Positions 1-3,000 of a stretch of 64,000 nucleotides of DNA are shown in pieces. Position numbers: made by a program. This DNA comes from a virus. Taxonomy: Duplodnaviria > Heunggongvirae > Uroviricota > Caudoviricetes. Within the stretch, counting starts at the first letter, position 1. Every line of letters starts with the position of its first letter. The stretch is from the IMG/VR virus record IMGVR_UViG_637000265_000001, one strand, 5' to 3'.

Positions 1-3000
1 TCGCTCGCCACGGGAATATCTGCGGCAGCGGGCTTGTAATGGGTTAAGTGATAACAGATGTCTGGAAATATAGGGGCAAATCCAGTATAAGCCATTATCA
101 AACCCACCCGTAGATAGGCTTTGTAATGGCTACTTCTTCAGAAATGATTCGATGAATTCACGTCGAGGATGACGATAGTTCAGAATATCTTCTGGCATCC
201 TCATAAAGCGGTTGTTGCCGTCTTTGGCAGTAACAAAACAGCTGTGAACTCCGCAGACATCCGTTTTGATCGTGTCGCTATACTCAAAAAGCAACTGAGC
301 CATCTTCTCTTGCCATTCTGGAGGCATAGCCTCCATGAATACTCGCGGCATCACGCAGAACGACGCATGCGTAAGACCAAACCACAGTTGCAGGTCTTTA
401 CGATATTCTTCATCCATCGTCTTTACCTTTGTTGCAATAAAAAGCCCCGCGAATGCGAGGCTAAATCCTGGTGTTTGTGATGACTGGCTCTTATCTAAAC
501 GCAGCCCCTTACCGCGCGCCAAATGCTCAACTTTAAGCATCAGCAATGAGATGTTTAATCTGGATTCACTCCAGAAGTGATCACCACCCTGTCTACAGAG
601 CCAGATGTGAAGGATGATGAGTAAAATTATCTCTATCATCGAAGGCATTGCGTCCTGATATATTCCTGAAGCGTTCTCAGTGCTGTCTGGTCTCTGATGA
701 TTCCGTCCCGGATACCGAGAACGTTTCGTCCAGCAACTGGAGAGAGTTCGACGGTGGCATCATTGCCCATGCCGGAGGCGCTGGAGGTTTCGGCTGAGGA
801 TGGCACAGGGCATTTTCCTTTGACGAGCACCCGACCACCATTATCAAGCTTGCGCCGAAGAGCATCATTTTCAGCTTTCGCATCAGCTAACTCCTTCGTG
901 TATTTAGCATCGAGTGCATCAGCATCACGCTGGCGCTGCTGCATGTCAGTAATGGTTGCGTTCGCCAGCTTCAGTTCTCCGGCGTTTTTGTCGCGCTGCT
1001 CTTTGTAGGTAATGGCGTTATCACGGTAATGATTAACAGCCCATGACAGGCAGACGATGATGCAGATAACCAGAGCGGAGATAATCGCGGTGACTCTGCT
1101 CATTGATCTATCTCCCAACAGGCTAATGCGCTTTCCTGGTCACGACGAATAACCTGTCCATAGCAGTTATTTGAACGTATGCGGCAATCGCGCCCAACAT
1201 CTTTTATCCACCAGCGAATCGCCTCGCATGCGCCCTTACGATCACCGGCATTCAGCCGCTTATAAAACGTCGACGGGAAACACTTACCGGGGCCAATGTT
1301 ATAGGGGCAAAATGACGCTATACCCGCTTTCTGGGGTTCGGTCAGAGGTACTTTAATATTGCGCTCCACCCATGCCAGCGCCTTATCACGTTCAATAGCG
1401 TTAACCTGGTCACATTTTTCCTTCGACAGCTTCATTCCCGGTATGACAGGCTTACCATCCACCATTGTGGCACCACGACAGATGGTCCATATGCCAGAAC
1501 CATCACGGTATGCCGTTGTGTGATTACCCTCTTTTTCGTTCAGAAACTGGTCAAGTATCTGGGGAGCAGACGCGCCTGCGGCAATCAGCGCCAGAACAGC
1601 AGCCGACAGGCCGTATTTGATTTTTGCGCTCATGGATATTTATCAGGATTTATCGGCAACAAATAACGAGCCAACTTATATACGCCTTTTAAGATAAGTC
1701 AGCCCCGGCTGGATCCAGTCATCAGGCTCTTTCTTAAAGGGGGAGTATTGAAATCACGAAGAAGAGCCTCCCGCACCGCAGCATCCATGTCTGCACCACT
1801 GGCAAGTGCTTCAATCTCTGCCGCCACCTGCAAATACCCCATGCAACGGCCAATGCGTTTCATAACTCTGGTGTTTTCGTCTTTCAGGCATCTGATAGCG
1901 AGATTAATAATTTTCAGGCAGTGATGATGCGATGCCCGGACAGGTTTTCCGTTCTCATAAACGACGAACTCACCCTCTTCACAGGAAACCCTGAAAGGCC
2001 GATGGGGTTCCTGGTCTTTATCCGGTGCAGACGCAATAAAATCACTTTTATGCTCTTCCTCTCCGGCACTGTTAACCGTAATGACGTACTCAGGCCGCAG
2101 GTAAGCCGCCTCTTTTTCTGACAATGCGGCCGGTAAAAACTTTTCCTGCAAAAACTTCATAAAAGTCTCGTGAGCGACTTTGTGGCAGTAATCGTAAATC
2201 GCCGCATAATGCTCATCGCGGCGTTTGTTTTCATCTTCAGAACTCACCAACGCCGACAAATTTTTTATTAAGCTCAGTGATTTCATTTTCCAGGTGATTG
2301 AATCGCTGATTCATTTCTTCATGCTTCATTATTTACTCTCCCCGTGCAGCCTTACGCTTGTCTTCTCTTATTTTGAAATATAGATTCGTCAGATAAGTCA
2401 GAAGCCCCAGAAGCAGACTTCCCAGCACACCAATCGCAGCCCACTGTGATGGCCTGACCTGATCCAACCACTGCAAAAACCAGTAGCCGGCACTGCCGGC
2501 GGAGGTGCCGTAGGCAATGCCCGTTGAAATTTTGTCCATGGATTTCATAGCCTCACCTCCGCAAATAACGGATGGCGTAGTTTTACACTGAGAAATGAAA
2601 GGGATTTGAAAAGAAAAACCCGCAAAAGCGGGCGAAACGATATATACAGTAAGGAAAGCACTCTATCCAACAAACCACCCACAGTTAATCGGAATAAAAG
2701 CAGAGTGCTTATGAATGATCGCCTGCCCGAAGGTTAGTATTTCTGCACAGCAATTTTGCAAAAAAAGCGATCATTCATAACTTAAACGTCTTTCAGTCAC
2801 TCCGGGATTTCCCATCATCGCAGACTGAAAGACTCTAACTGGAGCGGGCAGCGGGAATCGAGGTATCGAAGATAATCAGCCGCTAACCATTTGCTTCCTA
2901 AAGGATGATGAATCCTTGTGGTTACAGTTATGGTTACACATTAATTTATCTCTGGTCAAGTCCTCTCGTGACTCTGGAACGAGTAACCGAAGTCCTAACT

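Follow-up and report, generated by a model that had tools for sequence, protein, structure and literature searches.

A frameshift-split accessory gene between the holin and lysozyme genes of a Shigella flexneri prophage remnant, most likely decayed and unlikely to be a new lysis regulator

The stretch of DNA considered here (IMG/VR record IMGVR_UViG_637000265_000001, Caudoviricetes; the full 64,000 nt are hereafter called the window) carries on its minus strand a lysis cassette in which the space between an S21-type holin gene and the gene of a lysozyme of the signal-arrest-release (SAR) type is filled by a 195-codon open reading frame (ORF). The original prediction treated this ORF as a Cys/His-rich gene that is co-transcribed with the lysis genes, and proposed a role in lysis regulation, exclusion or anti-defence. 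An ATG-initiated ORF of 195 aa is indeed present at 1699-2286 (minus strand) between the two genes, the motifs CHKVAH, HHHCLKIINLAIRC and RIGRCMGY are all found in it, and its start is overlapped by a short out-of-frame ORF (2237..2329, minus strand, 30 codons plus stop). The accompanying suspicion that the coding frame needed checking was right: far from being a complete gene, the 195-aa ORF constitutes the 3' part of a 209-codon gene that a frameshift has split, and we consider that the fragments in the slot (i.e. the space between holin and lysozyme) are most likely what is left of an ordinary gene decaying within a prophage remnant of Shigella flexneri, with no new lysis regulator involved. 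The features of the locus are as follows:

2861: upstream end of the module's homology to other copies (BLAST of window 1-9000)
2618..2633, minus strand: terminator-like GC hairpin with a T run, ~70 nt ahead of the holin start (consensus scan)
2333..2548, minus strand: S21-type class II (pin)holin gene, 71 aa (PF04971 'phage P21 holin S', E 5.5e-35; phrog_20/9876 holin)
2237..2329, minus strand: 5' fragment of the slot gene, 30 codons plus stop (PHROG matches; co-linear with WP_001300760.1 codons 1-23)
2258..2260, minus strand: frameshift site 1, +1-nt T insertion (alignment to intact alleles)
1699..2286, minus strand: flagged 195-codon ORF, the 3' part of the split gene (phrog_1085, E 4.7e-65; 99.7% DNA identity to the intact 209-codon gene)
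1739..1743, minus strand: frameshift site 2, 1-nt deletion (DNA and three-frame comparison with four in-frame relatives)
1676..1738, minus strand: ancestral C-terminal tail, out of frame (frame-2 translation; column conservation in 113 sequences)
1100..1633, minus strand: SAR-type lysozyme (endolysin), 177 aa, with a hydrophobic SAR-like N-terminus (PF00959, E 5.4e-24; phrog_7 endolysin)
636..1118, minus strand: Rz i-spanin gene (PF03245, E 5.9e-30)
677-883: Rz1-like lipoprotein ORF embedded in Rz (ORF list)

The slot gene starts with the ATG at 2329, situated 4 nt past the holin stop and preceded by a GGAG Shine-Dalgarno (SD) sequence (2338-2341, 8-nt spacing) that lies within the last codons of the holin gene; its 5' fragment runs for 30 codons and ends at a TGA created by the frameshift. 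The window reads TTT at 2258-2260 where intact alleles read TT (AAAAAATTG to AAAAAATTTG), i.e. it carries a 1-nt T insertion, and six complete E. coli genomes contain a counterpart with 99.7% identity and one base fewer. In the annotation of E. coli CFSAN029787 the same interval is a single uninterrupted 630-nt gene (WP_001300760.1, 209 aa) beginning 4 nt past the holin stop, a start position common to the intact alleles (209-217 codons), and the alignment of the window to the intact allele reveals two differences only (the extra T and one Arg/His codon). The profile matches agree with a split gene: residues 1-24 of the 30-aa ORF match PHROG 15975, 36381 and 1085, positions 1-24 of phrog_15975 are matched by the 30-aa ORF and positions 20-40 by the 195-aa ORF, and the two ORFs match consecutive parts of phrog_1085. 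An SD scan gave no match for the ATG at 2286 or the TTG at 2259, and the former is fortuitous. Given the SD-preceded ATG at 2329 and the T insertion downstream of it, translation from the real start would thus end after 30 codons, and the window copy is left with two frames (30 + 195 codons) in place of a single uninterrupted one.

The extra T is found in both copies of the module in the finished chromosome of Shigella flexneri 5 str. 8401 (CP000266), of which the one at ~0.23 Mb is 100% identical to window 1-9000; the sequence is hence already deposited, and the gene is a catalogued 'hypothetical' one of prophages. The window's exact 195-aa product is present in the protein collection on a single Joint Genome Institute (JGI) metagenome contig, and the entry of a 186-aa ORF matching the frameshifted product includes an accession of the M90T genome project as well. 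The intact allele is carried by 6 E. coli genomes, S. flexneri SFBU1023 (a GTDB representative), one metagenome contig and E. coli draft contigs, and further S. flexneri 209-aa proteins fall in the intact-allele cluster. Since both 8401 copies have the T insertion while other S. flexneri keep the intact allele, the insertion is a lineage-specific mutation. The second 8401 copy (2.77 Mb) shares 99.4% identity with the window copy over 2.2 kb and has the same frameshift, and its presence in two remnants therefore points to a duplication, or to gene conversion between prophages, that postdates the mutation. Other E. coli genomes, too, have alleles annotated as frameshifted or partial; the 186-aa E. 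coli proteins, considered as independent frameshifts, were rejected as such, being contig-end truncations with the intact allele.

The second lesion affects the 3' end of the gene, where the window reads CCCCC (1739-1743) against CCNCCC in the family, a 1-nt deletion common to the whole 209-aa allele cluster. The family C-terminus ...NTPPFKKEPDDWIQPGLTYLKGRI is accordingly found as ...NTPPLRKSLMTGSSRG in the window and in this cluster: owing to the deletion, the tail is substituted by LRKSLMTGSSRG and a stop, and the ancestral version (FKKEPDDWIQPGLTYLKRRI and a stop) is still legible in the other frame at 1676-1738. The in-frame tail PFKKxPxxWxxPGxxYLKxRI, whose residues F, K, W, P, G, Y, L and R are among the most conserved columns of the 113-sequence alignment, is absent from the window ORF, and any product of the long frame would have this conserved part shifted out of frame.

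The surroundings of the gene are likewise eroded. By BLAST of window 1-9000 against the 8401 copies and CFSAN029787, homology of the module to the other copies begins at 2861, a break that falls within a tRNA-Gly gene of CFSAN029787, and ends near 645. The antiterminator gene Q and the four tRNA genes located upstream of the holin in CFSAN029787 are absent from the window copy (ARAGORN detected no tRNA in the window), and the late promoter PR' would, by inference, be missing upstream as well. The terminator-like hairpin ahead of the holin is no more than suggestive, since its sole source is a consensus scan and the region has no more such sites than shuffled sequence would lead one to expect. 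Insertion sequence (IS) elements flank the cassette, which is oriented away from the P22-like terminase and portal genes, and the region looks like a scrambled prophage remnant of S. flexneri serotype 5 (8401 type). Because the window copy combines two indels with the loss of Q, PR' and the tRNA genes, and sits in an IS-scrambled remnant, we hold it to be most probably a frameshift-inactivated late-operon accessory gene of lambdoid prophages, i.e. a non-functional pseudogene; the indels and the context can be read directly in the DNA, and loss of function is most likely what they entail. For the same reasons, together with the terminator-like hairpin, the lysis-time expression envisaged in the original prediction would be unlikely for this copy.

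Several neighbouring genes were noted in passing. Upstream of the holin and on the same strand (window 3303-4999, minus strand) lie an ORF of 379-405 aa with no assigned function and a DUF6971 ORF, which take the place of the usual Q-tRNA region and are also found in a few E. coli genomes, where they stand next to a Rha-family regulator. Directly after Rz, a 172-aa ORF (window 130-648, minus strand) without Pfam match is shared with the 8401 copy at ~0.23 Mb and absent from the 2.77-Mb copy and from CFSAN029787, where Rz is followed by ParDE-like toxin-antitoxin genes. Fragments of type VI secretion system genes occur near the cassette in this IS-rich region.

The slot gene is a member of PHROG 1085. 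Residues 7-195 of the ORF match positions 137-288 (of 296) of phrog_1085 (E 4.7e-65), and the slot gene corresponds to the C-terminal module of the long YdfR/DUF1327 proteins that lambdoid prophages of E. coli and Salmonella encode. A protein search recovered 132 relatives at E ≤ 1e-3, all from E. coli or Shigella, which are either stand-alone (185-222 aa) or carry an N-terminal DUF1327/YdfR domain (PF07041; 259-333 aa in total). The exhaustive profile search of 1.8 billion representatives gave only 40 matches, the distant ones being Salmonella enterica prophage 'hypothetical proteins' that share just a ~105-aa core and the tail, most of them with a distantly DUF1327-like N domain. PF07041 was detected at E ≤ 1 in 19 of the 113 aligned members, and a hidden Markov model of the E. 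coli N domain matched 14 of 96 Salmonella-branch sequences at E ≤ 1e-3; neither the 195-aa nor the 30-aa ORF matched PF07041 at E ≤ 1 (positive control P0004, E 6.6e-35). The architecture comprises an N-terminal coiled-coil helix, a variable middle and the ~105-aa conserved core, of which the 195-codon ORF retains the remainder of the coiled coil, the middle and the core, with all core motifs (F112, G119, H136 and LKRIGRxMGxLQxAAEIE, seen as RPFRV, SHHH and MKRIGRCMGYLQVAAEIE); its position in or beside a lambdoid lysis cassette within the late operon is also that of the family. Because the ratio of nonsynonymous to synonymous substitution rates (dN/dS) among intact alleles is 0.16-0.42 overall (0.19-0.34 in the core), the family, as judged from its alleles, is genuinely protein-coding and under purifying selection.

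PHROG 1085 is labelled 'unknown function' and its members are all 'hypothetical', scans of the ORF with Pfam, NCBIfam and PADLOC returned nothing above noise (PADLOC-DB: 0 families at E ≤ 1), and there was no lysis-category PHROG or Pfam match, so that the view of the family as functionally uncharacterised is borne out. YqeY and HEAT matches (E 0.05-0.15) were rejected, with YqeY appearing in just 2 of 113 family members. No transmembrane (TM) segment was found in the protein (maximum 19-residue Kyte-Doolittle mean 0.76), which is predicted to be soluble. Of the distant relatives, three had their loci looked up: the position between Q and holin was seen for two of them, and an overlap with a DUF4406 gene upstream likewise for two. 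The overlap amounts to 4 nt for the relatives P0154 and P0160 (loci L091, 1089-2377, and L093, 3639-4945); DUF4406 is nucleoside 2-deoxyribosyltransferase-like, in L093 the pair stands between Q and holin, and DUF4406 and the core-domain relative may form a two-gene accessory module.

To place the slot itself in context, we surveyed 80 IMG/VR loci whose holin is at least 90% identical to that of the window. In all 47 loci that have the window's lysozyme type (88-98% identity), a slot of 312-1085 nt holds a DUF1327/ydfR-family gene (103-243 aa, with varied C-terminal extensions); in 28 loci a different lysozyme (30-36% identity) directly abuts the holin, and in the remaining 5 no lysozyme was found downstream (mostly contig ends). 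Since every cassette with this lysozyme type holds a ydfR-family gene, occupation of the slot is the rule and no exceptional insertion, and the premise that holin and endolysin genes are normally adjacent fails for this cassette type, abutment being seen only with the other lysozyme. The core domain of the window gene was present in none of the 80 loci, and the window-type module is therefore a minority occupant of the slot. The cassette comparison did confirm that the slot content varies between prophages: the slot is a mosaic, decay-prone accessory locus, a hot spot of recombination and decay. One locus (L094, 1512-2700, E. coli 2015C-3121) has in its slot a 213-aa short form, a 75-aa DUF1327 fragment and a reverse-strand ORF of 95 aa, and another (L096) two pseudogene fragments.

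For the intact members of the family, some structural and experimental hints are available. The AlphaFold2 model of the E. coli homologue P0002 (17-sequence alignment) was unusable (predicted local distance difference test, pLDDT, 47.7), and that of the minimal Salmonella member P0155 (113-sequence alignment) reached a pLDDT of 85.6, with an N domain of a beta-sheet and a long helix and a core made of a three-strand beta-meander, a helical bundle and the packed tail. Foldseek searches of the P0155 model against PDB and BFVD gave nothing at E ≤ 0.001, and a profile search of PDB sequences was without matches. A likeness of the DUF1327-like N domain (P0155 1-75) to levivirus (MS2/PP7) coat proteins was non-significant (probability ≤ 0.23) and was rejected; it is a curious observation in the light of PMC13232886, according to which RNA may co-purify with YdfR. 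Experimental data exist for a single family member, K-12 YdfR, which consists of DUF1327 alone: by two-hybrid and co-purification, its residues 1-72 bind RNase E in the catalytic, N-terminal half (PMC13232886). The literature yielded no paper on ydfR together with holin, one incidental mention of DUF1327 and one YdfR interaction study.

On this basis we tentatively suggest, as our best guess but with low confidence, that the intact long forms are soluble cytoplasmic accessory factors made with the late genes, in which the helical core would act as a protein-binding module and the coiled coil would tether it, in full-length versions, to a DUF1327 domain that docks on RNase E. Such a factor would serve host takeover or RNA metabolism and not the lysis machinery, a role in lysis itself being disfavoured because many cassettes with the same holin do without the gene. 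Two considerations would weigh against this functional proposal: its basis is a single interaction study of DUF1327, a domain absent from the window protein, and the structure model comes without an informative homologue. The core, for which there is neither a Pfam model nor a structural homologue, is under purifying selection and invariably accompanies the stretch from Q to the lysis genes in lambdoid prophages of E. coli and Salmonella, mostly joined by a coiled coil to DUF1327. It could be a new effector module for late-phase reprogramming of host RNA decay or for lysis-timing control, a reading that we regard as unlikely.

Some observations speak against the pseudogene reading. The 195-aa frame is open, and low-level translation could initiate at the ATG at 2286 or, by termination-reinitiation, at a TTG or GTG just upstream of the short-ORF stop. 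Moreover, the 209-aa allele, with its C-terminal frameshift, occurs on 379 contigs; loss of the tail may be tolerated, or the count may merely reflect clonal spread. Taken further, these points lead to a truncated protein of 182-195 aa (from the ATG at 2286, or by reinitiation at TTG 2259 or GTG ~2247) that, at lysis time, regulates the pinholin or the SAR endolysin or acts in exclusion or anti-defence. The long-frame start codons within ~25 nt of the short-ORF stop, the purifying selection on the family and its consistent position beside or inside lysis cassettes of E. coli and Salmonella prophages are in keeping with such a protein, which we nevertheless deem improbable: neither the ATG at 2286 nor the TTG at 2259 has an SD, the conserved tail is out of frame, Q and PR' are absent upstream and a terminator-like hairpin stands ahead of the holin. 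It would furthermore lack a TM segment with which to reach the SAR domain or the holin's membrane part, PADLOC gave no match, and the empty slot in 28 of 75 same-holin cassettes implies that the protein is not needed for S21-type lysis. Nothing, then, links the protein to the lysis-regulator, exclusion or anti-defence roles that had been proposed.

Three further readings were considered. The shift occurs at a homopolymeric A6T3 tract (AAAAAATTT) and the same allele is found in two 8401 prophage copies, as would be expected if the tract were a site of programmed +1 ribosomal frameshifting or of transcriptional slippage yielding a regulated, low-level full-length protein; programmed sites, however, are conserved across homologues, and at this tract all other relatives examined, close and distant (another S. 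flexneri genome included), have one frame. As duplication or gene conversion between prophages accounts for the two identical 8401 copies, and no stimulatory element was seen (no search was made for one), we give this mechanism very little credence. That the frameshift is an artefact of sequencing or assembling a metagenome contig, the organism itself having an intact gene, could be suspected from the short homopolymer and from the occurrence of the exact 195-aa product on a single JGI contig, and is scarcely believable given that the identical insertion appears twice in the finished 8401 chromosome and that the 186-aa ORF entry lists the independent M90T accession. Finally, the Cys/His clusters might form a zinc or other metal site and make the protein a metal-dependent regulator: CHKVAH, SHHHC and GRCMGY are present in the window protein, and the SHxH and the GRC Cys are invariant in the E. 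coli subset. The description as Cys/His-rich proved marginal (5 Cys and 8 His in 195 residues), and across the 113 E. coli and Salmonella members a single His (HR[DN], 92/104) is conserved among the 13 Cys/His positions of a close homologue, short of the three or more ligands that a shared site would involve; the GRCMGY Cys is distributed as C43/A36/S13, the remaining Cys/His are variable, and zinc-finger profiles gave no matches. The family has no conserved metal site, and a metal-dependent regulator appears highly implausible.

With the pseudogene reading retained, the annotation at 1699-2329 should comprise one frameshifted pseudogene and not two ORFs. More generally, S21-type holins are separated from this SAR lysozyme by a regular, highly mosaic 'ydfR slot', and a second conserved domain, without name, structure or assigned function, is part of the long YdfR proteins; it is the long YdfR family, and not the window copy, that constitutes a sensible target in the search for accessory late or lysis functions.

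Among known systems, the accessory lysis regulators (the S21 antiholin product, T4 RI/RIII and the Mu SAR-endolysin regulators; PMC9239132) resemble the window gene only in neighbourhood and presumed late expression; relative to them, the window protein has no sequence, profile or fold similarity and no TM or SAR segment, and genes of its type are dispensable in many same-holin cassettes. With YdfR of the K-12 Qin prophage (DUF1327, PF07041, 103 aa) it has in common the slot between an essQ-type holin and a lysozyme. In the long forms, K-12 YdfR corresponds to the N-terminal partner domain, and the window ORF shares no sequence overlap with it (PF07041, no match at E ≤ 1); the RNase E result is therefore not transferable to the window ORF. 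The Salmonella enterica proteins (190-340 aa; P0154, P0155 and P0160) are encoded in the late region and share the ~105-aa core (consensus F-R-x... HR[DN]xII... LKRLGRxMGLLQVAAEIE ... DNPPFKxxPxxWIxPGxxYLKxR), with ~35-45% identity to the window protein in the core only; unlike the window gene, P0160 and P0172 (both placed relative to the holin) lie between Q and holin. Closer still are the long YdfR examples of PHROG 1085 (296-333-aa 'YdfR family protein', and orf5 of the Stx2-converting phage 86): the window ORF shows 82% identity to P0004 (333 aa) over the C-terminal two thirds of the latter, and the window gene likewise stands directly after the stop of an S21-type holin and before the lysozyme, but it has no N-terminal DUF1327, is interrupted by a frameshift and encodes its conserved tail in another frame. 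The nearest counterpart is WP_001300760.1 (209 aa, E. coli/S. flexneri), with 99.7% DNA identity, one Arg/His difference and the same C-terminal frameshift, which, unlike the window copy, is uninterrupted at the AAAAAATTG site, begins at an SD-preceded start and includes the first 23 residues.

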